Origin: Neophaeotheca triangularis
Lineage: Eukaryota
Assembly: GCA_054600435.1 (NCBI GenBank)
Contig: BAAIJX010000022.1
Coordinates: 310,001 to 374,000, forward strand
Direction of reading: 5' to 3'
Length of the DNA: 64,000 bases
The notes under the pieces are model-generated. The model ran no database searches and was not told the DNA's origin. It was given only the letters and a program-made list of their open reading frames with translations. Below, piece by piece: positions 1,555 to 57,145 of the stretch. Each line of letters opens with the position of its first letter. Position 1 is the stretch's first letter. The translations under genes and the position numbers were made by a program.

Positions 1555-3427
1555 GCCCACACCAGCATATATGCCGCCATCACAGAGCCCGGCGTTTGCA
1601 TCGCATTGGTCGAACTCTCCTTCTGCTGGACAGCAGCAATATGCAGCCCCTACGAGCTATGCGACTAATCAACCCGGCGGAAGCTCCATGCCAACATACC
1701 CCAATCATCCGGGCGACGTTCATTCGGGGATGGGGTTCGAGGTCCCGGGTTTCCAGAACTACCAGGGCATGGGAACGTTGACGTCTAGCTTTGATGGCTT
1801 GGGCAGTGCACAACGGCAGGCTTCTGGGCAGGCTCGTCCCGCTTCGGGGGTTTCTTTTGAGGATGCAAGCATGCATCTGAAGCTGCAAAGTCTGCCGATG
1901 TTGGATAATTTGGTAAGTCTGAGCATATTCCAAGATGGGAGCGGAGACATGTCCCGCAGACTCCATCTTCGGCAAGCATGGTACTCTGTGAAGGCATCTT
2001 CGAGCTAACTAAAGCGACAGGCGACCCAACTAATACAAACCCTTGCAAAGAGTTCTTGGACTCAGCTGCAGGAACTCATGAGCGGCAGCGAGAACGAAAG
2101 CGTTCAGGCCTACAGCACGGTCAAGAATCTCTTCGATCAAACCCGCAAAGTCTATACGCGAGGAACCCCTTTTATTGACGCCAAAGCTATCCAGCTTTTC
2201 CAACCTCAACAGCAAGAGACTATCCGCAAGGCCAACATTGCAACGTTCGTCGCTTCCATTCTTGGGGCTCACGATGTCAGCTTCTTCCACCTCAATCGCT
2301 TCTTTCTCGAGACTTTCGTGCCGCAGGGATTACGGTTGCTGAAGTGGCAAGGGGTCATATTCCTCGAATTGAAAACCCAGGCTTACATTTACTCTCTGAT
2401 CAACTCGGACGTCACCCCTCAAGCCTCGCTGGACGAGCTTTTCCCAGCCGAACTCGAGCAACACCTACTAAGCCGTCATCCCGACGCACCTTCGTTCTCT
2501 CCCAGCGAGCAAGACTTTACAGACCGCGTCAAAGCCCGGAAAAGCTACTTGGCACCATCATCCTCGATCGCACCAGACATGACCCTCTACGAACTCCCCA
2601 AAAAGTATAACTGGAACGACTTTGTCCGGGAATTTGCCTTTTGCATCAACAAGAACCTCGATTCCTTGCTCAATAACCCCATGCGCGCGAATCAGCCCAT
2701 CTTCAACACCTCCGCAAGCCGCATCGCCACCAATAATCAAGTCCAACATACGGCGCGTGAGAGCTCCCTCTCCTTCCACCACGCCAACCCCCCATCACGC
2801 TCGACAACCTCAACCCCCACCGCCATGGACCGTGCCCGCAGCACCCTCTCTAGCATGCCCATCTCCTCCAACCCCTCCACCCCCGGTGCCCTCCCACAAC
2901 CCTCGAACTCCATCCCGCACTCGAAACCCCCAACACCGACCCGACATGCGACTGCCACAACGACCAACCCTCCCACATCTAACAGCAAAAACCACACCCC
3001 AACACCCCCATCCCACACCCCAACAACTACCGCAACGACCGCCAACTCCACCCCCACCTCCACTCCTACAATCCGCCAACCCTGGACCAAACCCGAAGAA
3101 GACGCCCTCCTCTCCGGCCTGGGCCAAGTAAACGGCCCGCACTGGTCGCAAATCCTCGCTCTCTACGGAAGAGGCGGCTCGCAAAGCGAAGTCCTCAAAG
3201 ATCGCAATCAGGTGCAACTCAAAGATAAAGCTAGAAATTTGAAGTTGTGGTACCTCAAGACTGGGAGGGAGGTTCCGGTGTGTTTGCGCGGGGTCACTGG
3301 GGAGTTGAGGAAGCGCGGAGGTGCGAGGGTTAGGGCTGCGTTGGGGTTGGATGGGGATGGGAATGGTGGGAGCGGGGGTAGGAATGCGGGGGATGTGGAG
3401 GTGGCGAGGGGGAAGGGTGAGGGATGA
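824..3427 (+). CDS. TBF1: Telomere repeat-binding factor with C-terminal Myb/telobox domain
   Basis: Exons 824-1912 and 2021-3427. Intron 1913-2020 (GTAAGT..GCTAAC..CAG) gives SLPMLDNL|ATQLIQTLAK. TRF-like core (IRKANIATF, FLELKTQAYI) and Myb motif RQPWTKPEEDALLSGL...WSQIL...LKDRNQVQLKDKARNLK. Start may be 884; possible extra in-frame intron 1098-1208. Confidence 0.85.
902..950 (+). repeat. (CAGCAC)n coding repeat, His-Gln tract
   Basis: cagcatcagcaccagcaccagcac... encodes QHQHQHQH. Confidence 0.85.
1481..1555 (+). repeat. (CAA)n coding microsatellite, polyglutamine tract
   Basis: Long caacaacaa run encoding QQQHQQQHQ followed by polyQ. Confidence 0.95.
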
Positions 3428-25964: not shown

Positions 25965-28900
25965 TCAAACAACCCCCCTCGCCTTCCCCACAAGCTCCAG
26001 CCCCAACCTCTCGAGATAAAACCTCGCGGCCACGCCATCAACCCCATCAAAAGCCTTGCAAATCTTGTCCACATCCTTGCGCCCCTTCTCATAAGCCGCC
26101 AGATCCCTATTGCCATAGACATCCCTGCCGGCCGCATACCCTTGCTCCCAAGAGCGGAAAAAGACATTCACAGCCACGCTCAGGCCTTCGGTCGGGTGCG
26201 CCGTGTGCAGCCATAGCGGTGGGATGAAGAGGACGTCGCCCGGGTTGAGGAGGGCTTCGTGGGGGGTTGTGTGGGCGGTTTGTTCTGTGGGGAGGTCGTT
26301 GGGGGTTTGGGGGGCGAAGAGGTTGAGGGAGGAGCTTGAGGCGCCCGGTTCGAAACCAAGGTGTGCGATGTCGGTGGGGGGGAAGAGGAGGAGGCGTTTG
26401 TGGCCGCGGATTTGGCAGAGGATGTTGGCCATGACGTCGTAGTGGAGCCACATGTTTACTGGGCCTGAGATGCGGAGGGGGGAGCTGTGGGCGTTGTCGG
26501 TGGCGTGGGAGAGTTGGGGTGGGAGTTGGAAGTCTGGGGCTAGGGAGGGGAAGTCGGTGGCGAGATTGGTAGGTTTGCCGCTTGGGGCGTCGTAGGAGAG
26601 GGCGCGGAGGTAGAGTTTTTCGCGATTTGAGACTCGATCGAGAAAGTCGGAGGCTGTGATTGTGCTGTAGGAGAAGTTTTTGTTTTGGAAGTCCATGGTC
26701 TCGTCGTGGGCTTCGTGGACTACTACTTTGCGTTCTGGGCCTATGGCTTCTTTGAGGTAGGGGAGAGACCATTTCTCCTTGCAGGGACCGAGATTGGCAT
26801 TGGTGAAGATGATGGGCTGGCCTGCTTGGACGTAGGCCTCGAACTCGAGATTCCCGGGATCGTTGATATCGAGTCTTGGTATCGATTTTGGGCGTAGCCG
26901 GTTGCTTTCGCAGCCTGGAGTTTCTGCTTCTATCGTTGTGGGTTCATGAGCAGCCTTTGGCGGCGCCTTCGAAATCTTTGGGGTATCATTTGACCTGAAC
27001 TGCCAATCTGAAATGCCCTCAACCTTCCGCCTCCATGTCAAAAAACAGCTATCGTTCCAATAAGTGCCGAACGAAAAGCAAGTCGCGCCCCCGCCTAGCA
27101 CTAAAACGCCATCTTTGGTCGGTACGAGATTGAAGCCCACTAGTAACGGTCTTGGAGTGTCAGGGTCCAACGGGTACGGGTTCTTCTTCTCGAGGTTCAG
27201 AAACTCTTCGTCTCTAGTGAGCATCCGTCCTTGGGCGATGCCTCCAACGAGCTGCAAATCATTGTATGGAAAATGTTGGCCAAACCGAGCGCATTGCGCT
27301 CCGAATCGAGCAACTCGGTAGGTCTCTTTTGAAGGCTGGGGCGGGTCGACAGGCGTCCACTCGATTTCCATCGTTTCTTCGTAGATTTCACAACTCCAAA
27401 CATCTTGATGGATGGTGCCATCATCCGCCATGCCTCCGCACATAATGTACCTGGCAGTTTCACGTTTGTCTTCCTGGTCAGGATTAGAGTACACAACGGC
27501 GCCGAACCGAGGTGCTGGCAGTGTGGAGCCCTTTGGCTTCAGCGGCTGCCACCCACGATCTCGTCGCCAAAGAATTGGCTCGAGAAGGACTTCGCCACTG
27601 CTGGTTTTTCCACCAACGACTAGGACGCTCGCTGTGCCGCAACGAATGGCGCAGTGCCGATATCTACCTTGAGGCAGAGACTCAGTCTTTTGCCACTGGT
27701 CGCCGCTCAAATGCCAGCAATCGGAACTGGCCTTTTCGGGCGAAGTGCGACCGCCTACAAGTAAATGAGTGCTCGGGCCGGACTTAGTGATGGTGTGACA
27801 CATTAACCCTGTTCGCAAAGGCGGCCCTGCGAAGCCGTCGTAGCGATCCTCGCGACTGTAAATGTCGCATGTCGTAAGGCGCTCTTTGGTGCCCTGACCA
27901 GCATGAAGGGCAGCGCTATCATGGCTCCAGCCATCCCTGTCCATGAACAGCGCCGCGAATCGACGATGAGACTTGCGGTTTGGTAGAGGATAGCAAGGCA
28001 AGGTAGGCCGTTGTTGGCACTTTATCGGGGTTTCATTATGCAAGGCCACAGCAGTCAAGCTTGAAGAAGCGGGAGTCATTGTGCCATTGGGAGCCTCATC
28101 TCCACACTCGATGCAGTCCATACCAGGTCTCTTGGTGGCCACCAGCAGGAAGTAGTGTGAGCCAAAGAGTGCAAATTCCTCCCATTCGTCGAAGGGCTCG
28201 ACCTTGTCAAGGCTGCGTCGCTCGTCAGGGGCAAGGAAGCTATTGTCTGACCAGAGAGCCCAAAGACTGCGAATATCGACTCCTTGATCAGGGAAGCCGG
28301 CGTTGATGAATCTCAGCTTCATCTCGTCCATAGTACCAATAGCATGCAGCGGTGTACGCAGCTTTTCGAAATGCTTCAACATCGTTTGGGCAAACGGGTG
28401 ATCTGCCCCATCTGGCAGATGCTGTTCGAGTAAGCAGAATTGAACGTCGTCGTAGCTAGCAGCCCACTCGAAGACAGCATCGGAGGCGTCCTTTTTCATG
28501 TATGCCGTAGAGACTTCGGCAACAAAAAGTATAGCAACTTTGCACTCAGACATCTGGAATTGATCTTCAAGAATTATACGTAGAAGGTCGAGATCGCGCA
28601 AATCGCAGCCGACAGGGACATAGTTCGTGCTCGTTGCGAGGACGCCGTGTTTCTGCTCTGTACGCTTGAAGCCAGGCACAAGGGAAGTCAGTTGCTCAGT
28701 CTGCTCGATCATGGAGACTTTCTTTTGCATGAGCTGCGCATAGTCGACATCAACAAAAACGGCGCCTTCGCACATGGCCGGTCGCTTCCCAAAGAAAAGC
28801 CATGGTAAAGGGTCGCTTTAAACATGTCAGTTTCTCTTCCAGGACAGCGTTAACGATGACCTACACCTACAATCCACATCCGAGATTCACCACAACTTTC

Positions 28901-41893: not shown

Positions 41894-43738
41894 TTAGTCA
41901 AGCTCATCATCATCGTAGTCCTCTTCCTCCTGCTTTTCAGCATTCGCAGCCTCACCACTTTCCTCGGCCTTCTTCTCAATCTGCCTCTTCATCCACTCCT
42001 TGGGGGGACCAGGCTCTTTCCACTCCTTGATGCGCTCGTTGGGTATGTAGACGAAGAATGTAGGGTAAATCCCAAGTATGCTGTCAAGCCACTTGATGCC
42101 ACAATCCAATTCCTTGACAACAGCCCAGAGACCCATACCTGGCACTACCAAGTCCAGCAGTTTATCCTCAATGAAAAACTCAAAGGTTCGCACTTCGAGC
42201 TCCTCCATTGCTTCTGGACTTAAGTCGACCGGGGCGGCAAAGTCAGGCGTCCAACGTTCGCAGATGAGTTTGCCAGTCGGTTCGAGAAAGCACCCTTCGA
42301 GCTCGGGTGCTTGGAAGATGCCGGCCCTCCAACTATCAGCGCGCTCAATGCCACGTACGACCATGTGCACTTCTTCTGAGATGATGAGTGTATTTTCACC
42401 GTTGAGAGATGCGAAGGTCGTCCATTCGTCGGCTTCTGAAACCCAGAGACACGTATGAATGCCCATAACGGCATTCGCATCATGATCACACAAACCCGTA
42501 CTGACGTCTACAGCTTTGGCCCACTCTGCATCCAAGGCGTGAGAGCTGTGCATGCCGGCGTAGTGACCTCCATTGAGAGTGGAGCAAGCGACATTGAACT
42601 GTCCAGGCAAACGGGCTCCCAGCTCAAGGATCTTGGGCAATTCCTCGTCGGCGAGGTCACACACGGCGCGAGCTTCGAGAAGACCTTGTTTGTATTCTGG
42701 ACAAACGTCGTGCAGGTCTAGATACCTGTAGAAAGTACGCATGACGTTGGTGGCGGCAAAAATCTGATCCTTGGTCTCTGCCAGGTGTGGCGGCGATAAG
42801 AGCTGCGAAGAGAGGAATGCTTTGGCCAATCCCGCGAAGTCGACAATCCACGTCGTACGCTCATCGTCGCAATCTTCACCAAGACCTCTGGTCACGCTCC
42901 CGTTGACGCCATACTTGTTGGAGCGATCCGCTATGTCTTCTTTGTCGTACTCGTCATACTCAGCTCGGTTGAAGTCTTGGTTGCCTTGGAATTGCCTTGG
43001 CCCGTTGTCGATGCCTCCAAACTCCATCCAAGCGTCGAACACCCTCTTCGTCTGTTGATGGAGCTTCCGCTTGAGCGTGAAGCGCTGAAGAGCCTTCTCA
43101 ATGCGGTCGCTGAAGGGAATCTCTGGGGCGTACCATTCACGTTCTTTTGCGTAAAGCTTTGGCTCGATGGGGCCCTCGATGTGGTCTTCCTCGAATCCGG
43201 TGGCCTTCAACATGTTCTTGGTCATCCATGGCTGTTCCCTGAGAATTCGATCCTTGGAACTCTCTTGTTTTGGTGAATCGCCGTGGAGTTTGGGCAAAAC
43301 CGTGAGTGGTTTGGTCATCGGCTCGCGGCGTTGAACGTATTCGTTGTCGATGATTTTCACGATTGTGCTCTCCTGGAGTGCAGCTACGACGGCCTGTATT
43401 GGCTTGTATCTTTTCATTTTGTTGAATCCGCATATGGTGCTGACACTGACTGGACCATTACCGTCACCGCCGGTAAGAGCCAAGAGATGTTCATCGCCTT
43501 TGAGGTTATCCTCGCTGAAGTAGTGGTCGACTTGCCTCAGGATATCTACAGCTCTCTTGTGTGGCTTGATGGCGTGGGAAGTGGCATCCGACAGCTCGTT
43601 TTTCGGATCAGTGTTCAAGGTATATGTACCATCCCCGTTACGCGAAAAGAGCGACTTCACAATGTTGATTCCAGGTGAAGACGTGTCGGGCGAAACGGTA
43701 GATGAAGAAAGGCAGTCTTTGGGTGGGATCTCCGCCAT
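41894..43738 (-). CDS. La-motif plus Argonaute siRNA chaperone complex subunit Arb1 domain protein
   Basis: La motif RQVDHYFSEDNL..DEHL...VSVSTICGFNKMK...VQRREP, then Arb1-like TGFEE...P.EP...RIEKALQRF...FGGID.GPRQFQG...VDFAGLAKAFLS...HDVCPEY, and an acidic tail; single ORF. Confidence 0.82.
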   Translation of the reverse strand: MAEIPPKDCLSSSTVSPDTSSPGINIVKSLFSRNGDGTYTLNTDPKNELSDATSHAIKPHKRAVDILRQVDHYFSEDNLKGDEHLLALTGGDGNGPVSVSTICGFNKMKRYKPIQAVVAALQESTIVKIIDNEYVQRREPMTKPLTVLPKLHGDSPKQESSKDRILREQPWMTKNMLKATGFEEDHIEGPIEPKLYAKEREWYAPEIPFSDRIEKALQRFTLKRKLHQQTKRVFDAWMEFGGIDNGPRQFQGNQDFNRAEYDEYDKEDIADRSNKYGVNGSVTRGLGEDCDDERTTWIVDFAGLAKAFLSSQLLSPPHLAETKDQIFAATNVMRTFYRYLDLHDVCPEYKQGLLEARAVCDLADEELPKILELGARLPGQFNVACSTLNGGHYAGMHSSHALDAEWAKAVDVSTGLCDHDANAVMGIHTCLWVSEADEWTTFASLNGENTLIISEEVHMVVRGIERADSWRAGIFQAPELEGCFLEPTGKLICERWTPDFAAPVDLSPEAMEELEVRTFEFFIEDKLLDLVVPGMGLWAVVKELDCGIKWLDSILGIYPTFFVYIPNERIKEWKEPGPPKEWMKRQIEKKAEESGEAANAEKQEEEDYDDDELD

Positions 43739-44455
43739 GTTGGAAGCAGATGTTGGGTGACCGAAGAGAAGTTGTGTCTCAGACGGTATGCTTGGGTGAA
43801 AAGAGCCAGTCTTGTTGGGGCTGGCGTTTGTCAGGGGGAAAAAGTAGAACTCGCCTGTCTGCAGGTAAACGGTGAAGTAGCCTGCCGTGTGAGGATTGTG
43901 TAGAGGAGTTGTGCAACAACGCGTGAACGTCGTGAACGTCCCAGATGGGGACTGGGCTAAGTACCAGGCGTGATGTCTCCTCAAGGCCCAGCAGGTCAAA
44001 GTGAGGTTTAGGATCTGGCAAACAATGTAGGAGTAACCTAAGTGCGTAGCATCGCAGAGTAAGGTAAGGTAAGGTTAGGTAGGTACTACTGTATGTAACT
44101 GAGGTCGGCAGGGGAAAAGGACGACGGAAGGCTTCCCTATGTACCTAAGCTCGTATTGAATGTGCACTGACTATGTGGGAGTACCTTGCATTAGCTCCCG
44201 CGGCCGTCGGGATCCCGTCGGGATTGTGGGCCGTGGACAAACGTCAGCCAAGTGTATACCTTACCTTAGGTACCTGTAATCTCAACCTCCACTCGGGCTG
44301 GGTATCGAACAACCCAAGTACACCTAGCGATTCGGCTTTACCTTTATCGCCAACACTCTCCTCTCAACGTAACCTTCAATTGGCAAAACATAACCCCTCC
44401 AGGACCGCATTGAAGTTCAATCAGCCATACTCTCCCCCACCAGCTTACTCCGATC

Positions 44456-45524
44456 ATGGCAGAAAACAAGCAACTAGACCTCTCCAAGCTAAAGGCCTTT
44501 GAAAACGCCGCTGCTGGCCACGACGGAGTCATGTCCGATCCCACGGGCGAACTCATCATCAAACCATGCACCAAGTCGGAGATTGATTTCTATCAGCACA
44601 CCACGACTGAGCACGCCGACTTTGCCGAATTGATGCCTACTTTCATGGGCACGCTCCAACTCGGTGCTCCAGCCGAGGCGGCGGACGTGACGGCCGCGTC
44701 TGAAGCTCCCGAGATCGCCCAGGCAGCAAAGGATCAACAGCTCAAACATGGCATGAAGTTGGAGACGGAGACTGCCATCGTTCTGGAAAACCTTGAACAT
44801 GGCTTCAAACAACCCAATGTTTTGGACCTCAAACTGGGCGCTAAGCTGTACGATGCCGAATCCACAAAGCCTGAGAAAGCCGAAAGGCTTGACAAAGTGG
44901 CGTCCGAGACGACCAGCGGCTCGTTGAACTTTCGCATTGCAGGAATGAAGGTATGGAATGGCCAAAGCTTCGACATCTACGACAAGTTCTACGGGCGCAA
45001 GTTCAACGACCAGAATGTCAAAGACGGCTTTGCCACGTTCTTTGCGGGTTTGGGACATGGCGTGTCTCCCAGTCTTGCCCAGGAGCTTTTGGAAACTATC
45101 CTGGCTGAGATCACAAAAGCACGTCAGCTTCTGGAGAGGAACGAGTCGCGCATGTTTAGTGCCAGCGTGCTCATCGTTTACGAGGGCGACAACGACGCGC
45201 TCAAGACTTTGATGATTGGTGGAGACGACAAGACCCCAAAGGCAGACGAGTCTGCGCCGAAGCAATCCGAGATTCAAAAGAGTGTTGATGAAGAAGAGGA
45301 CGAGGATGAGGAAGACCCGCCCACTGCCTTTAGGGTCAAGATGATCGACTTTGCGCAGTACGTGATCACAGTACTGCGATTGGGTTTAATCGTCGTGAAA
45401 AAACTTGCTAACAATACCTTTCAGTGCCGCTTGGACACCAGGAAAGGGCCCAGACGAGAACGTTGTCAAAGGTCTCAAGAACATCGAAGCTCAGATGGAC
45501 GACCTGGTTGCTCAATTCGATTGA
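44456..45524 (+). CDS. Inositol polyphosphate multikinase (IPK family, Arg82/Ipk2-like)
   Basis: AAGHDG, PNVLDLKLG (PxxxDxKxG), FRIAGM, SASVLIVYEG; MIDFA|HA across intron 45358-45424. Confidence 0.92.
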
Positions 45525-45588
45525 ACGTCGCAAACAACTACGAAGCCAGGCGTTTACGAGTTGCTTTCAGGGATACCCATGCACTATG

Positions 45589-46980
45589 CTATCGTTCTAT
45601 ACCAAATTCCTCGAAGATGCTCTCGTTGTGCTGGCCCACGCTCGGTATCTCGTCCATTCTGACGTCGTACCCCTGATCGGCACCGGCAGGTCTCAAGGCA
45701 GGTATCATCCCGTTCGGCGTGTTGACACCCGTCCACCTGTTCCTGGCTTTGAGTTGAGGGTGCGTCCAAAGCCCAGCCATATCATTCAACTTTGAATTCG
45801 CAATCCCGTTTTCTTCCAAACGCCTCAAAACCTCGTCAGCCTCCATTTCCGCAAAAACGCTCTCAATGATCTCCTTCAATTCTCTTCTGTTTTTCGATCT
45901 AACCGAAGTACTCTCAAACCGCTCATCCTCCACCAACTCCGGTTTATTTAAAACCGCCCTCGCGAAAACTCCCCATTCTCGCTCATTTTGCATCCCCAAC
46001 ATCACCGTTCCCCCTCCACCCGTCTCAAAAGGCCCATAAGGATAAATACTCGCATGTTCCGCGCCTGCCAGTCTCGGCGGCTCCTGTCCCTCATACGCAT
46101 AATACAACGGAAAACTCATCCACTCGGCCATACTCTCGAGCATACTGACATCCAGCCTAGAGCCCTTCCCCGTCTTACCACGCTGCAAAAGCGCCGCAAG
46201 AATGTTGTTAAAAGCCGTCGTCCCCGCGGCAATATCCGCAATACTGATACCAGCTTTAGCAGGCTGGCCGTCAGGGGTGCCAGTAATGGAGAGAAATCCC
46301 GCCTCAGCCTGTATCAGCAAATCATAAGCTTTCTTATCCTTATAAGGCCCGGTGCTCCCATACCCAGAAATGTCGCAGACAACCAACCCCTCATTCCCCG
46401 CGCGCAAGCTCTGAAACCCCAACCCCATACGCTCCGTAGCACCAGGCGCGAGATTCTGGACCAGGACATCCGCTTTCATGATTATTTGCTTTAGCGCTTC
46501 GAGGTCGTCCGGGTTTTTGAGATCGAGGGCTAGCGATTCTTTGGATCGGTTGGTCCAGACGAAGTGCGAGCATTGGTTTTTGACTCTTTTGTCGTGTAGG
46601 CGGTTGAAGTCGCCGCTGCCGGGTCTTTCGATTTTGATCACGCGGGCGCCTAGGTCGGCGAGCTGGCGGGTGCAGAAGGGGCCGGCGATGGCTTGTTCAA
46701 GGGAGACTACTAGGGTCCCTGAGAGGGGGAGGTCGGAGCGTGGTGGGGATTGAGGTGAGCATTTTTGATGGTTGGGGGTGGTTGTGCTGAAGAGCCTGGC
46801 AGGAGCGCCGGAAGGGTTGATTCTTGACGGGCAGGTTTCGAATGCCGGGGATTTGGTCAGGCTACTTGGAAACTGGCGCACCCGCTGACTTATTGTCGAT
46901 AGCCTGCTTGTTCCGCTGCTTCTTGTCGACGATGAGGCCAGCTTCCGGGCAGGGGGCCCACGTGGCCTTAGAGAAAACAT
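45589..46980 (-). CDS. CoA-transferase family III (CaiB/BaiF), predicted mitochondrial
   Basis: EQAIAGPFCTRQLADLGARVIKIERP, NRSKESLALDLK, ISGYG, YDLLIQAEAG, ADIAAG; long Arg/Ser-rich N-terminus. Confidence 0.93.
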   Translation of the reverse strand: MFSLRPRGPPARKLASSSTRSSGTSRLSTISQRVRQFPSSLTKSPAFETCPSRINPSGAPARLFSTTTPNHQKCSPQSPPRSDLPLSGTLVVSLEQAIAGPFCTRQLADLGARVIKIERPGSGDFNRLHDKRVKNQCSHFVWTNRSKESLALDLKNPDDLEALKQIIMKADVLVQNLAPGATERMGLGFQSLRAGNEGLVVCDISGYGSTGPYKDKKAYDLLIQAEAGFLSITGTPDGQPAKAGISIADIAAGTTAFNNILAALLQRGKTGKGSRLDVSMLESMAEWMSFPLYYAYEGQEPPRLAGAEHASIYPYGPFETGGGGTVMLGMQNEREWGVFARAVLNKPELVEDERFESTSVRSKNRRELKEIIESVFAEMEADEVLRRLEENGIANSKLNDMAGLWTHPQLKARNRWTGVNTPNGMIPALRPAGADQGYDVRMDEIPSVGQHNESIFEEFGIER

Positions 46981-53178: not shown

Positions 53179-56100
53179 CTAACGCCCACCCCAAGGAGCG
53201 GCCTCCCCGTAATACTCATACACGATGTCGTCGAGATCGGGCGCAGCGTCGTTGCGCTCAACGCGGGCCTGGTCGTACGCGTTGCGAGCTTGGTCCGGCG
53301 GGACGTCATTGAGGTGGCGGTGAAAGTCTGCTTGAGCGGGATCGAGGTTAGCGGGTAACAGCCTCTCATTAGCTCGGCGGGCGCGTCTTCTGTTGGCTCG
53401 CTCACCCTCAAGAAGGTCCTCTGGGTTCTGGGCACGCGGCTGTTGGTCACGACCATCGTGACGGTGACGGCGGTGGCCTTGATCGTGTCCTCCTCCACCT
53501 CTGGGGGCTTGGCCCTGACGGCCGGGGTGGGGTTGGCCGGCGAGGTTCATGGGGTCGTTCATGGGATTCATCGCGAGCATGGCGTCCCAGGCGGCGTTGA
53601 CAGGGATCTGATCTCTCACAGCGTCGTCGAGTCCGCCTGGAAGGCCAAACTCATCATCGAGACCGCCATCTGGGGCGTTGGCGAAGGCGTCCGCGGCCGC
53701 TCGAGCACCGCGCCTCTGCTCCATGTGCTCACGAGCACCAACTTCTCGTAGCGCTTGCTCGCGGGCCATGTCTTCGATTCCCTCCTGTTGCAAGCCTGCG
53801 AGATGGCGTGCTCGAACTCTCTGAAACATGTTGTCGGCTGCGATATCCCTACGATCACGACCGCCATCACCTTCACGGGCGATGTTGGCACCTCCAGCGT
53901 TGGCGGGATTCTGTTGATGAACGTCGGCAAAGGCTTGCGGGGGCTGTTCGAAACCTTGCACATTCTGAAGAAGTCCGCCAAAGGGTGCAATCATCATAGG
54001 CTGGTACATGCCTAGATAGTCATCGGGTCCGGGGTGGAAATTGGCCGCCTGGGGGTAGCCGTGACGGTATGCTTGCTGGATCTCGGCCACTCGGGCATTG
54101 ATGTCCTCGTTTGGGAGAGCGACAGCGGGGCGAGCAGCTGCAGGACGCTGTAGGTGCGCCTGCATCCGGGCGTATAAGTCGTTGTCGTCGTTGGGAGGAG
54201 CTCCAGCGGGGCGAGCAGCTGCCGGACGCTGTAGTTGCGCCTGCATACGGGCGTATAAGTCGTCGTCGTCGTTGGGAGGAGCTTCAGCGGGGCGAGCAGC
54301 GGCCTGACGTCGGTGGTGCGCCTGAAAACGGGCACGGAGTTGCTCGTTCGGCAGGGGAACAGGAGGACGCCTGGGAGCTGCTCCAGGGGCGGGCATTTGC
54401 CGCCATTGGTATGGAGGAATGAGGCCCAGCGCGCGAGGTGGAGGCTCGTCGACTTCGATTCTGAGGTCCTGGTCTTGTAACTCAGGGTTATTGGCGAGTG
54501 CCTCCTCTCGTGCCTTCTTCTCCGCTTTCTTGACCTCGTTGTGGTGGAAATGATCGACGCTCCCGCCTACGTCGTACATGGCACATTTCTTGTTGCCGTC
54601 CTCCGATCGTGGTGCCGGATGTCGGGAGCGCTGATCGAAGTGAGTGTAATCCCTGATGCTCTCAGAACACACGTAGCATTGGAGGTTACCACACTTGACA
54701 CAAGCCATTTTGTTGCAGCCCTCAGCCTTCAAGAAAGCAGTCTTGCACTTGTTGCAGTTGCGAATGAGTGCGGAAGACATCGCTTCGGCGATTTGGTTCT
54801 GCAAGGAGACTTTGTTATTGTCAGCGACTTCTTTGCAAGTCAACGGTATGTGGCTTTTCTTCTTGCAAATGCGGCAGCTGAGCTCGCCGCAGCGCGGATT
54901 CTCGCACTGAAAGTGATTGTACCCGTCCTCTAGGATCGCCTGGTAGGAACAGAATGGGCACCCTTCGAGGCCAGGGATGTCAGCGTTGCGCAACTCTTCT
55001 TCTTGGAGCAGGTTCTCGAGCCTTTCGACGTCTTTTTGGTTTGGCAGAAGCCTTAGCTGGCTTGTTGCGAGCTTGAGGCCGCACCCGTGTCCTGAGCAAA
55101 ACACCCTAGTTGACTGGTCGCCTACCATGGTCTTGACGTAGATTTCAGCGCAATCGTAACAGATATAGTGCACTTGTTCGCCGTCGCAGTGGATAGATCT
55201 GTTCATGGGTTCTTTTTCGAAGCACGCCTGGCACTCGACGAGCTGATTTTCCTCTCTCGCCCTCGCCTTGTTCTCATCGTCAGCCTTTTGCTTCTGCTGT
55301 TTAGCTATACGCTGCTCTTGAGCCTCCTGGACAGCCTTGACTGCTGCGTTGTACTCCTTCTCGATCTCCGGCCCGGCGGCGCTCGCCAGTTCAGAGGCAT
55401 GCTGCTTGGCTGTTCCAGAATGAGAAGCATGATTGTCCCGCGTACGGTGAATCCCTTTTTTAGCTGATCCCGCCGCAATTTCCGAAAGAGCGACGTAGGT
55501 AGGGAACAGTTGCTTTTGTTTGGCAAAGGTATCCTTGATGCACTGGACGGTAAGCGAGGGGAATGAGGCGGTCAAGATGCTCCGAACAGTATCTTTGGCT
55601 GCGAGTGGCAGGGTACCTCTCATCCTTGACGTGAATTCGCTGAAGTCACTGGCCTCTGGAGAATCCGCACGCTTCCGTTTGCCATTACTCCTGGCAGTCT
55701 CTCGCTTTGGGTAGTCGCCTTCGCGGTCAGCGATCTTGTGTGCGATCCTCTGCGCCCTCTCCTGTGGTGGTAATCCACCCTCGCCAACCTCCCCGCCTCC
55801 GTAATTGTTGTAGAGCTCCTCAACGTACTTTGGCAGGATGTCTGGAAACATCTCCATCACGGTTTGCAGGCACGTGTCAACGGTATAGTTGAGGTGTTTG
55901 TGATCAGCGCGATCCATTTCAGTAGCGACACCGTGGTCGAGAGACTCCTGAAAGTGGGCGTTGGCGTTGTCGGTAAGGTCTTCTTCACCGACTGGCGTAG
56001 TGAGGCCAGCAAGCTGATCTACGTCGAAGATGTCATTCATATTGGGGTCTCCGCCGTTGTTCTCTGCAGGAAGTCTGACCTGGGCCGGCTCGTAAGCGTC

Positions 56101-56322
56101 GACGTCGATGACTTCGTTGTCGCCCATCCGCGCCATCCGAACGACGTCGTCTGGGCCTTGGAGGGGCTGCATGGCCGCGGCGTGATGGCGTGCACGGTGT
56201 TGCAGGGGGTGGGTGTCTATTCCTCGCCTCCTTATTGGTGACGATGAAGGAATGGTGTCGGAGTCGCTGTCGCTGAGTAGGTCAATCAGCACAGGTGTGC
56301 GGTGAAGGATGGCTGGAGGCAT
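53179..56322 (-). CDS. RBR (RING-IBR-RING) E3 ubiquitin ligase, RNF216/TRIAD3-like
   Basis: RING1 CQAC...HYICYDC, IBR CPFC...CRICKKKSH, RING2 CNKC...EGCNKMACVKC...CYVC; start taken at ATG 56322. Confidence 0.9.
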   Translation of the reverse strand: MPPAILHRTPVLIDLLSDSDSDTIPSSSPIRRRGIDTHPLQHRARHHAAAMQPLQGPDDVVRMARMGDNEVIDVDAYEPAQVRLPAENNGGDPNMNDIFDVDQLAGLTTPVGEEDLTDNANAHFQESLDHGVATEMDRADHKHLNYTVDTCLQTVMEMFPDILPKYVEELYNNYGGGEVGEGGLPPQERAQRIAHKIADREGDYPKRETARSNGKRKRADSPEASDFSEFTSRMRGTLPLAAKDTVRSILTASFPSLTVQCIKDTFAKQKQLFPTYVALSEIAAGSAKKGIHRTRDNHASHSGTAKQHASELASAAGPEIEKEYNAAVKAVQEAQEQRIAKQQKQKADDENKARAREENQLVECQACFEKEPMNRSIHCDGEQVHYICYDCAEIYVKTMVGDQSTRVFCSGHGCGLKLATSQLRLLPNQKDVERLENLLQEEELRNADIPGLEGCPFCSYQAILEDGYNHFQCENPRCGELSCRICKKKSHIPLTCKEVADNNKVSLQNQIAEAMSSALIRNCNKCKTAFLKAEGCNKMACVKCGNLQCYVCSESIRDYTHFDQRSRHPAPRSEDGNKKCAMYDVGGSVDHFHHNEVKKAEKKAREEALANNPELQDQDLRIEVDEPPPRALGLIPPYQWRQMPAPGAAPRRPPVPLPNEQLRARFQAHHRRQAAARPAEAPPNDDDDLYARMQAQLQRPAAARPAGAPPNDDNDLYARMQAHLQRPAAARPAVALPNEDINARVAEIQQAYRHGYPQAANFHPGPDDYLGMYQPMMIAPFGGLLQNVQGFEQPPQAFADVHQQNPANAGGANIAREGDGGRDRRDIAADNMFQRVRARHLAGLQQEGIEDMAREQALREVGAREHMEQRRGARAAADAFANAPDGGLDDEFGLPGGLDDAVRDQIPVNAAWDAMLAMNPMNDPMNLAGQPHPGRQGQAPRGGGGHDQGHRRHRHDGRDQQPRAQNPEDLLEGERANRRRARRANERLLPANLDPAQADFHRHLNDVPPDQARNAYDQARVERNDAAPDLDDIVYEYYGEAAPWGGR
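54100..54365 (-). repeat. 81-bp coding tandem repeat in the RBR ligase
   Basis: gcggggcgagcagc recurs at 54125, 54206 and 54287; encodes AAARPAxAPPNDDxDLYARMQAxLQRP. Confidence 0.92.
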
Positions 56323-57145
56323 TTCGATGGCGGTGCGCTCTTGGCAATTATCGGAGTGAGCTGTGTGAGCGGGATGACGCACGGCCTTGACGCTGCTGCC
56401 GAAAAGGGAAAGCACGAAGCTGGTGGCGCCTGAGGCTGCGCTGCGGGACTTCAAGCCGTTTTCGACACTTCAGAGGGCCAAGGAGTGTCCCGGTTGATCT
56501 TACAACACAGATGGAATATTTTTTGGAGACTTCGCAACACGAGGAAGAGGAGGCGTAATCCAAGGCCTAGGCGTGGGCAGGGTTGCAGGAAGAAATGATG
56601 GGTTTCTGTTTTCCAGACGGGGATGAAAGTGTAAGACCCTACAGGCTCGGGAGAGGCGTCGTTGGCGGCAGGCAAGTCTTGGGAAGACAGAAGGAGTTGT
56701 AGTAGCAGCAGAGATGTGACAGTGGGTTGCGCTGTCACTACAACAAGGTAGACGAGGCAGGACCAGGAGCGTTGAGAGGCACTGCTTTGTAGGCAGAGCG
56801 CGGCTAGGCTGTTCAGCCGTGTTGTGTGCCTGGGTGGTGAATGGCCGGGCTTGTTGAAGATTCGGACGAGGCTATCATGTCAAGAGGGCCAGAATTTGCA
56901 AAGCCTTGCGGACGGAGGTGGGTTCACTGGAAGGTGTTCAGCGGAGACGGGGGCACTGGTCCAATTTGGCTCGTACGACTGCCTCGACTCTGATTACTAC
57001 CTTCCCTTACCTACTAACCTTAGGTAGCTTAGCTAGACGCAACGAGGCACGAAGCGACGGGAGACGAAAGGTGAAAGTCGCAAAGCAGCTGGAATGGTTG
57101 CCGTGGGCGTGAAAAGGTCGGGTGTGGTCCAGCTCATACTTGCTA

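Follow-up and report, generated by a model that had tools for sequence, protein, structure and literature searches.

The La-Arb1 gene and its surroundings

The locus described here lies within a 64-kb window (the whole stretch of DNA that was analysed) and consists of a single-exon gene on the minus strand at 41894..43738. Its complete coding sequence comprises 614 aa and a stop codon (41894-41896) and encodes one protein, referred to below as La-Arb1, in which a La motif is followed by an Arb1 domain. The open reading frame runs without interruption from the first in-frame ATG at 43738, sits in a stop-to-stop frame (41894..44074, minus strand) that holds no ATG upstream of this position, and is collinear with 12 relatives, each with both domains (12 of 12 word-indexed relatives). 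The gene is intact and comes from a Dothideomycete fungus, the closest named relatives of its product being found in the Teratosphaeriaceae (order Mycosphaerellales). The initial annotation had proposed a single uninterrupted ORF with a La motif directly before Arb1 and is borne out on both counts: the 614-aa minus-strand frame at 41894..43738 has no internal stop, and Pfam, structural models and fold matches agree on the architecture.

The AlphaFold model of the whole protein is confident (pLDDT 84.8). An N-terminal region (residues 1-57; 43568..43738, minus strand) is predicted to be disordered and is poorly conserved, with pLDDT values of 35-63 (means per 10-residue block, residues 1-60) and with a length and sequence that vary in the alignment of relatives. 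It is followed by the La motif (residues 58-145; 43304..43567, minus strand), by a short linker of about 25 residues without an RRM (residues 146-168; 43235..43303, minus strand), where pLDDT falls as low as 60 (residues 151-160) and conservation is low, and by the Arb1 domain (residues 169-576; 42011..43234, minus strand). The C-terminal tail (residues 577-614; 41897..42010, minus strand) is formed by a helix (residues 581-593) and an acidic, low-confidence end whose pLDDT declines from 66 (591-600) to 50 (601-610) and 43 (611-614); the translation terminates in EEEDYDDDELD.

A 717-bp intergenic region (43739..44455), likely to be a promoter region, is common to La-Arb1 and a divergently transcribed inositol polyphosphate kinase gene, which starts at 44456 on the plus strand and is recognised by a Pfam IPK match of 146 bits. 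Among the 26 long ORFs and two neighbours scanned in the 64-kb window, no other RNAi gene (including Argonaute, Dicer and Arb2) was found.

The architecture is visible in databases, as had been guessed from the DNA: UniRef and NCBI carry such proteins as 'HTH La-type RNA-binding domain-containing protein' and 'Argonaute siRNA chaperone complex subunit Arb1-domain-containing protein', and an Atlas cluster of 80 members contains Arb1 in 100% and La in 93%. The accompanying guess, that the combination has no functional description, agrees with the openly available literature, in which no paper describing the fusion was found (subscription journals could still hold one). Publications pairing Arb1 with LARP deal, by their titles and abstracts, with ribosome quality control and mitochondrial import and not with RNAi; among the matches listed for Dothideomycete RNAi, titles and abstracts name no La-Arb1 protein, and the word 'Arb1' occurs in just one of them; and a 2020 survey of La and LARPs contains 0 occurrences of 'argonaute' (PMC7928011). 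La-Arb1 is a solid architecture, unstudied in the literature found, and any mechanism proposed for it is putative.

A stand-alone La motif and its 3'-end pocket

The La motif has a winged-helix fold according to Pfam, the model and fold matches. Pfam La (PF05383) matches residues 66-123 (nt 43370-43543) over the entire profile (1-59 of 59) with 58.7 bits (cut-off 37.1; E 5.1e-16), and the corresponding part of the model (residues 61-150) has a pLDDT of 96-98. This part was matched by VIA to LARP7 (4wkr_B; Z 12.6, rmsd 2.4, 84 aligned), La (9nfa_B; Z 12.0) and LARP1 (7soo_A; Z 12.0, rmsd 2.6, 87 aligned), and by Foldseek to 1s29 (TM 0.79). Its sequence matches to PDB chains comprise LARP1, La, LARP7 and LARP6, the best single-sequence match being LARP1 (E 1.2e-07). 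Profile scores against PDB chains (Dictyostelium La 59.6, LARP7 59.6, LARP6 50.5 and LARP1 48.4 bits) do not discriminate among donor lineages of the motif, and an Atlas search with residues 55-150 from which Arb1 clusters were excluded returned generic La clusters only (0.79-0.81, under the lead threshold).

The La motif of La-Arb1 is stand-alone, without an RRM, in a LARP1-type arrangement. Only about 25 linker residues separate it from Arb1, no RRM family is reported after it by Pfam at E<=1, and the model contains no RRM-like secondary structure there; DM15 is likewise absent, La and Arb1 being the only Pfam families reported at E<=1. Several particulars of the initial annotation are confirmed by these results, namely the position given for the La motif (about 43550-43320) with the strings QVDHYFSEDNL and ICGFNKMK, both of which occur in the translation, and the lack of an adjacent RRM; the Pfam check that it had named places both La (58.7 bits) and Arb1 (355.3 bits) above their cut-offs.

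Six residues form the 3'-end pocket of La motifs, namely Q20, Y23, Y24, D33, F35 and F55 in human La numbering (PMC6439165). Four of them are identical in the protein of this window (Q69, Y73, D82 and F105) and the remaining two positions are occupied by His (H72 at Y23 and H84 at F35), so the earlier impression that the typical pocket residues are retained is right in part. Across 49 La-Arb1 sequences D33 is kept in 49, Y24 in 48, Q20 in 47 and F55 in 45. The Y23 position is variable (28 Tyr, 11 Phe, 8 His, 2 Trp), and that of F35 is His in 39 sequences, Tyr in 6, Phe in 3 and Trp in 1. Judged from this alignment, the residues that in other La motifs hold the ribose 2'/3'-OH groups and the penultimate base are strongly conserved in the La-Arb1 family.

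LARP1, the sole well-studied stand-alone La motif, is reported to prefer poly(A) 3' ends, its isolated La motif being sufficient for binding (PMC9458460). According to the same source, Asp346 binds the OH groups of the 3'-terminal ribose and the two final bases are held by stacking against pocket residues. The most critical residues are reported to be Q333, Y336 and F348, the equivalents of Q20, Y23 and F35. Since two of these three are His in the protein described here (H72 and H84), it may bind RNA ends weakly or with a changed affinity. The His typical of the family at the F35 position suggests, further, that the end or base preference of the La-Arb1 La motif differs from that of both genuine La (UUU-OH) and LARP1 (poly(A)).

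These features bear on two other interpretations of the motif. It may no longer read 3' ends, serving instead as a protein-interaction or structural module or binding RNA in a non-canonical manner like LARP4A, with the activity residing in Arb1. The His residues at the Y23 and F35 positions are compatible with such a loss, as are the reports that LARP4A has two of the six pocket residues replaced (PMC6439165) and recognises RNA largely via disordered regions and a PAM2w motif (PMC6486636), and that the solo La motifs of yeast are insufficient for RNA binding (PMC7928011). However, Asp, Tyr24, Gln and Phe55 are maintained at the frequencies given above over the whole Dothideomycete-Arthoniomycete span, a pattern that is difficult to account for unless the canonical pocket is under selection, and His can stack on a base, as reported for His368 in LARP1 (PMC9458460); loss of 3'-end reading is considered improbable.

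The initial annotation had raised a second interpretation, in which the motif reads UUU-OH or uridylated 3' ends and feeds Pol III-derived or uridylated RNAs into RNAi. The La fold, the four to five of six pocket residues in common with genuine La and the fact that the LARP1 La motif has also been crystallised with U6 (7sow) speak for it. Against it, La-Arb1 lacks the La-RRM module that U-specificity in genuine La requires; the two domains are reported to act together on UUU-OH, with most RNA contacts made by the La motif (PMC6439165). Also against it are the replacement of F35 by His in most family members and the profile scores, which do not set the motif with genuine La rather than with LARP7, LARP6 or LARP1. 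This specificity is regarded as very unlikely.

The Arb1 domain and the distribution of the fusion

The Arb1 family (PF09692) is defined by the Argonaute-binding protein of Schizosaccharomyces pombe (PMC13136243). In La-Arb1 the family profile is matched over positions 4-403 of 403 by residues 173-576 (nt 42011-43222) with 355.3 bits (cut-off 25; E 6.5e-106), and the domain, recognised by Pfam, the model and its relatives, opens with a conserved block, KPWxTKxMLKxTGFE. A model of Arb1 alone reached a pLDDT of 88.7 and a pTM of 0.86. Arb1-domain proteins are widespread in Ascomycota, with 595 representative clusters at E<=0.001, and G181 and R212 are invariant across 69 sequences.

No solved structure is a convincing relative of the Arb1 part of the predicted model, and its fold provides no mechanistic clue. 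Sequence searches of the PDB, run with the protein alone and with a profile of 13 sequences, gave no match to Arb1, and neither the whole model nor that of Arb1 alone had a Foldseek match at E<=0.001. In the wide VIA search with the Arb1 model the top match was 3nrw_A (Z 6.5, rmsd 2.8, 90 aligned); the helical bundle repeatedly matched tyrosine-recombinase core-binding domains weakly (Z 5.2-6.0, and 6.5 for 3nrw_A). A beta-rich C-terminal sub-domain (residues 451-560; 42059..42388, minus strand), with predicted strands at 451-465, 488-495, 518-524, 536-544 and 549-558, showed weak, sub-threshold likeness to OB-type barrels (Z 4.2-5.3; PriB 4fdb, SSB 3tqy, RPA 3e0e and LEF-3 7yny). As these values are below the level common for unmatched models, they are kept as a lead only.

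A La motif was recognised by Pfam in 41 of the 72 closest Arb1 representative clusters (39 above the cut-off) and by a family-specific profile in 49 of the best 150 Arb1 relatives. The named members of the La-Arb1 group are Dothideomycetes and one Arthoniomycete. The motif is absent from the Leotiomycete, Eurotiomycete and Lecanoromycete Arb1 proteins looked up, a set that held no Sordariomycete. The N-terminal extensions of Arb1 proteins without La (45-234 residues) were also considered as possible degenerate La motifs. A La profile derived from 49 La-Arb1 sequences (filters off, E<=10) found no match in them, and at that sensitivity the idea is rejected.

The history of the fusion was followed on a tree of 120 rows based on Arb1 columns only, from which 38 of 158 rows covering <85% of the Arb1 profile had been left out. 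All 54 La-positive rows fall inside one clade of 60 (SH-aLRT 96), and the La state changes 7 times on this tree versus a mean of 39.6 after shuffling, with none of 500 shuffles as low. The survey across fungi for which the initial annotation had called finds the fusion clade-wide. The fusion, as read from this tree, has one origin and has since been retained across the Dothideomycetes and in one or more Arthoniomycetes. The La-Arb1 of this window groups inside the Arb1 tree and is, on sequence grounds, an orthologue of the clade-wide La-Arb1 protein.

The remaining six rows of the La-positive clade, which are Arb1-only gene models, could be taken as a sign that La and Arb1 are expressed separately, from an internal start or as two genes, and that the fusion is apparent only. 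Yet each of them starts at Arb1 residues 1-32, as truncated predictions would, and they look like truncated gene models. Moreover, the two parts share one frame without a stop and only a short linker precedes the conserved Arb1 block, while the same collinear order recurs in 54 representative proteins whose assemblies and annotations are independent. An artefact of this kind is exceedingly improbable.

A possible role in Argonaute loading and comparison with known systems

The preferred reading, held tentatively and at somewhat short of an even chance, is that the La motif holds an RNA 3'-OH end while Arb1 associates with Argonaute, thereby aiding loading. On this view the Arb1 domain would partner an Argonaute, in the manner of S. 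pombe Arb1 within ARC, and the La motif would grip a free 3'-OH end. The most plausible candidates for this end are a 3' overhang in the siRNA duplex and the 3' terminus of a transcript, whether precursor or target; the RNA may in this way be stabilised or positioned as Argonaute is loaded. ARC (Ago1-Arb1-Arb2) is reported in a review to carry duplex siRNA, and Arb1 to inhibit slicing in vitro (PMC13136243). A La-motif domain is reported to aid binding of the non-target end of the small-RNA duplex in HEN1 (PMC4357707). On the other side stand the two His residues in the pocket of this protein, the lack of other RNAi genes among the ORFs scanned in the window, and the description of the fungal solo La motifs of Slf1 and Sro9 as necessary, not sufficient, for RNA binding (PMC7928011).

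Alternatively, La-Arb1 may bind RNA by its La motif and act outside Argonaute silencing, as a general RNA-end-binding or chaperone protein or as a factor of sexual development, in which case the name 'Arb1' would stem from one member alone, that of S. pombe, and the wider family would have a different ancestral role. The breadth of the family in Ascomycota and the absence of RNAi neighbours from the 64-kb window are in line with this view. The sole functional datum found for an Arb1 homologue of a filamentous fungus, Neurospora crassa NCU06316, is an arrest of perithecia, a developmental phenotype that does not bear on RNAi (PMC4203796). The weak likenesses of Arb1 to OB folds (Z 4.2-5.3) and to the core-binding domains of recombinases (Z 5.2-6.5), types that contact nucleic acids, point the same way but fall under the noise level of the tool itself, and the one Arb1 member studied biochemically is reported to be an Argonaute partner (PMC13136243). 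A role outside RNAi is considered rather unlikely.

A broader version of the loading proposal holds that La-Arb1 represents a further, fungus-specific La-related class, which would have originated once in a Dothideomycete/Arthoniomycete ancestor and whose His-modified pocket would present the 3'-OH of an siRNA duplex or precursor to Argonaute via Arb1; so extended, the proposal is speculative and, taken as a whole, unlikely. If true, it would mean that these fungi possess a built-in 3'-end reader for Argonaute loading, where other lineages use separate proteins, and that 3'-end recognition and small-RNA loading are physically linked across a large fungal class rich in plant-associated and rock-inhabiting species. 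The La-related protein superfamily would also gain a class that the 2020 survey does not mention (PMC7928011). With a single origin, long retention and an Arb1 without La in sister classes, the contribution of the La motif is separable, which provides a clean natural experiment.

Among known systems, genuine La (Lupus La, Lhp1 and Sla1) and LARP7 resemble La-Arb1 in the fold and sequence of the La motif (59.6 bits; Z 12.0 and 12.6). Lacking RRM1, La-Arb1 has no La module and is by architecture neither a genuine La nor a LARP7. LARP1 (7soo) shares a La motif with no RRM behind it and the pocket Asp, Gln and Tyr. It differs in that no DM15 or other LARP1 region is found in La-Arb1, whose La motif forms the N-terminal side of a fusion with Arb1, and in that the equivalents of F348 and Y336 are both His in the protein of this window, for which a poly(A) preference cannot be assumed.

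Arabidopsis HEN1 is a functional precedent, as it carries a La-type domain in a protein of a small-RNA pathway (PMC4357707). Its fold match to the La part is weak (VIA, 3htx_D; Z 5.7), and its La domain has dsRBDs as neighbours and a methyltransferase, instead of Arb1, as its fusion partner; the two proteins are only distantly similar, with no sign that the fusion is of common descent. S. pombe Arb1, the ARC subunit, is not known to carry a La motif. La-Arb1 resembles this protein by its full-length match to the PF09692 profile (4-403 of 403, 355 bits) and differs by its N-terminal La motif, which is missing in the Arb1 proteins looked up outside dothideomyceta.

Gene and domain organization of the La-Arb1 protein

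The La-Arb1 protein is a conserved fusion of single origin: a stand-alone La motif, its 3'-OH pocket under constraint, is joined to a complete Arb1 domain. It is encoded at 41894–43738 on the minus strand by a single unbroken open reading frame (614 codons plus stop), which starts at the first in-frame ATG (43738) of a frame open upstream as far as 44074; its translation confirmed the coordinates and peptide strings quoted in the initial annotation. At E ≤ 1 exactly two Pfam families match the protein, La (PF05383; residues 66–123, E 5.1e-16, 58.7 bits against a cut-off of 37.1) and Arb1 (PF09692; residues 173–576, E 6.5e-106, 355.3 bits against a cut-off of 25, profile positions 4–403 of 403), and the conserved Arb1 opening block KPWxTKxMLKxTGFE begins at residue 169. 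Neither alignment nor model contains an RRM after the La motif; the linker from the La fold to the opening block is short (about 25 residues) and probably flexible.

An AlphaFold2 model built from a 69-sequence alignment (mean pLDDT 84.8, pTM 0.73) comprises a low-confidence N-terminus (residues 1–57), a La fold (residues 61–150, pLDDT 96–98) and a stretch where confidence falls to 60 (residues 151–160). The remainder starts with a confidently predicted helical region, continues as a beta-rich sub-domain whose strands lie between 451 and 558, and ends in a C-terminal helix and acidic tail. In structure comparisons the La part matches LARP7 (4wkr_B; Z 12.6, rmsd 2.4, 84 aligned), La (9nfa_B; Z 12.0, rmsd 1.8, 81 aligned) and LARP1 (7soo_A; Z 12.0, rmsd 2.6, 87 aligned), and Foldseek related the model to 1s29 (TM 0.79). 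The Arb1 domain modelled alone (pLDDT 88.7, pTM 0.86) has no sequence relatives in the PDB and no Foldseek matches at E ≤ 0.001, and its top Z in a Foldseek-independent structure search (6.5) lies below the noise level stated for the tool. Recurrent among these sub-threshold matches were tyrosine-recombinase core-binding (SAM-like) domains for the helical part (Z 5.2–6.5) and OB-type barrels for the beta part (Z 4.2–5.3); both predicted sub-domains may resemble folds that contact nucleic acid, a likeness treated as a mere lead because of those low Z values.

The gene is separated by 717 bp from a divergent inositol polyphosphate kinase gene (44456–45676, plus strand; Pfam IPK, 146 bits), in which the family match stops near residue 304 of a frame that continues to 406 aa, suggesting an intron or frame change near the 3' end. 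Its downstream neighbor encodes a zinc-type alcohol/quinone dehydrogenase. Elsewhere in the window, a 950-aa open frame (25968–28817, minus strand) contains a leucine carboxyl methyltransferase (LCM) match together with Kelch repeats and a Cupin_8/JmjC domain, an arrangement resembling fused TYW4 and TYW5, two wybutosine enzymes; the longest unannotated frame (53182–56469, minus strand; 1096 aa) matches no Pfam family at E ≤ 1e-5, and an ordinary gene at 2009–3424 (plus strand) encodes a protein with a telomere-repeat-binding-factor (TRF) homology domain (164.5 bits).

Distribution and origin of the fusion

Both domains occur in 12 of 12 relatives retrieved by a word-indexed search, the closest of which is just 60% identical; those named are all Dothideomycetes (Oleoguttula, Meristemomyces, Acrodontium, Acidomyces, Patellaria), and the source fungus probably belongs to the Mycosphaerellales. 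An artefact made of two separate products is hardly credible. The Arb1 part alone, chosen as query so as not to favor La, matched 595 clusters at E ≤ 0.001 among 1.84 billion representatives. La was recognized by Pfam at E ≤ 0.001 in 41 of the best 72 of these clusters (39 above the cut-off), and by a family-derived La profile in 49 of the best 150. On the basis of the clusters bearing names, La-bearing proteins range over Dothideomycetes (Plenodomus, Phyllosticta, Pseudovirgaria, Eremomyces, Piedraia, Teratosphaeria, Bogoriella, Elsinoe, Rhizodiscina, Aulographum and a Dothideales species) and Arthoniomycetes (Coniocarpon). Arb1 proteins devoid of La are found in Leotiomycetes (Lachnellula, Golovinomyces, Pseudogymnoascus, Blumeria, Botryotinia) and in Ophidiomyces, Cirrosporium, Xanthoria, Rusavskia and Thelocarpon; their N-terminal extensions (45–234 residues ahead of Arb1) show no La similarity at E ≤ 10 with filters off.

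A tree was inferred from Arb1-domain residues only (IQ-TREE quick, LG+G4), with 120 rows covering at least 85% of the 416-position Arb1 profile and 38 of 158 proteins left out as partial. All 54 La-bearing rows fall within one 60-row clade (SH-aLRT 96), and the La label requires 7 changes against a shuffle mean of 39.6 (0 of 500 shuffles as low). The six La-less rows of this clade (P0014, P0028, P0051, P0078, P0103, P0148) all begin at Arb1 residues 1–32, which suggests truncated gene models instead of loss. Since the 60 rows outside the clade all lack La, with no remnant in their extensions, the simpler reading is that La was gained once, in the dothideomyceta lineage, although on this unrooted tree gain here and loss everywhere else are formally indistinguishable. 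One protein of the La-bearing clade (P0149) comes from a 2.24-Mb contig recorded as belonging to the plant Carpinus fangiana, probably fungal DNA within a plant assembly.

The architecture is already present in automated resources, including an Atlas cluster of 80 members (Arb1 in 100%, La in 93%), under inconsistent names: 'HTH La-type RNA-binding domain-containing protein' in UniRef and 'Argonaute siRNA chaperone complex subunit Arb1-domain-containing protein' at NCBI. Two Elsinoe australis proteins of one 90%-identity cluster (P0037, P0193) are called 'putative argonaute siRNA chaperone (ARC) complex subunit Arb1' and 'La', respectively. No publication describing it was found in a literature collection with few subscription-journal papers, nor any combining Arb1 and Argonaute with La domain, or Arb1 with La motif or HTH La-type; Arb1 with LARP gave nothing on RNAi in titles and abstracts, and a 2020 survey of La and LARPs in 135 species does not mention Argonaute (PMC7928011). 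The copy in the window is an ordinary La-Arb1 orthologue.

The 3'-end pocket of the La motif

Human La recognizes 3' ends through six residues, Q20, Y23, Y24, D33, F35 and F55 (PMC6439165). In LARP1 the terminal ribose is bound through its 2' and 3' hydroxyls by the Asp, the equivalent of F35 makes a stacking contact with the last base, and those of Y23 and Q20 hold the penultimate one; there the La motif suffices without an RRM to bind poly(A) 3' ends at submicromolar affinity (PMC9458460). Over 49 La-Arb1 sequences, Gln is kept at Q20 in 47 (Q69 in the protein of the window), Tyr at Y24 in 48 (Y73), Asp at D33 in 49 (D82) and Phe at F55 in 45 (F105); position Y23 varies (28 Y, 11 F, 8 H, 2 W; H72), and F35 is occupied by a family-specific His (39 H, 6 Y, 3 F, 1 W; H84). 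These counts point to a strongly constrained ribose-gripping core across Dothideomycetes and Arthoniomycetes; the proposal that the pocket is retained is thus correct in part. That the motif has ceased to read 3' ends is unlikely beside an invariant Asp, even with the His at F35. A narrower suggestion, recognition of UUU-OH ends or Pol III RNAs, is very improbable because the RRM is missing and His replaces F35.

Possible association with Argonaute and comparison with known systems

In S. pombe most siRNA in the ARC complex (Ago1-Arb1-Arb2) is duplex, and Arb1 in purified form inhibits slicing by Ago1, according to a review (PMC13136243). We tentatively propose that the Arb1 domain of La-Arb1 would dock on an Argonaute while its La motif would grip a free RNA 3'-OH end, the favored candidate being the 3' overhang of an siRNA duplex or a precursor end. 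Somewhat less probable is that the protein binds RNA and acts outside Argonaute pathways; the sole phenotype found for an Arb1 homologue of a filamentous fungus is perithecial arrest (Neurospora crassa NCU06316; PMC4203796). For the proposed role of the La motif a precedent is provided by HEN1, whose La-motif domain aids binding of the non-target end of small-RNA duplexes (PMC4357707).
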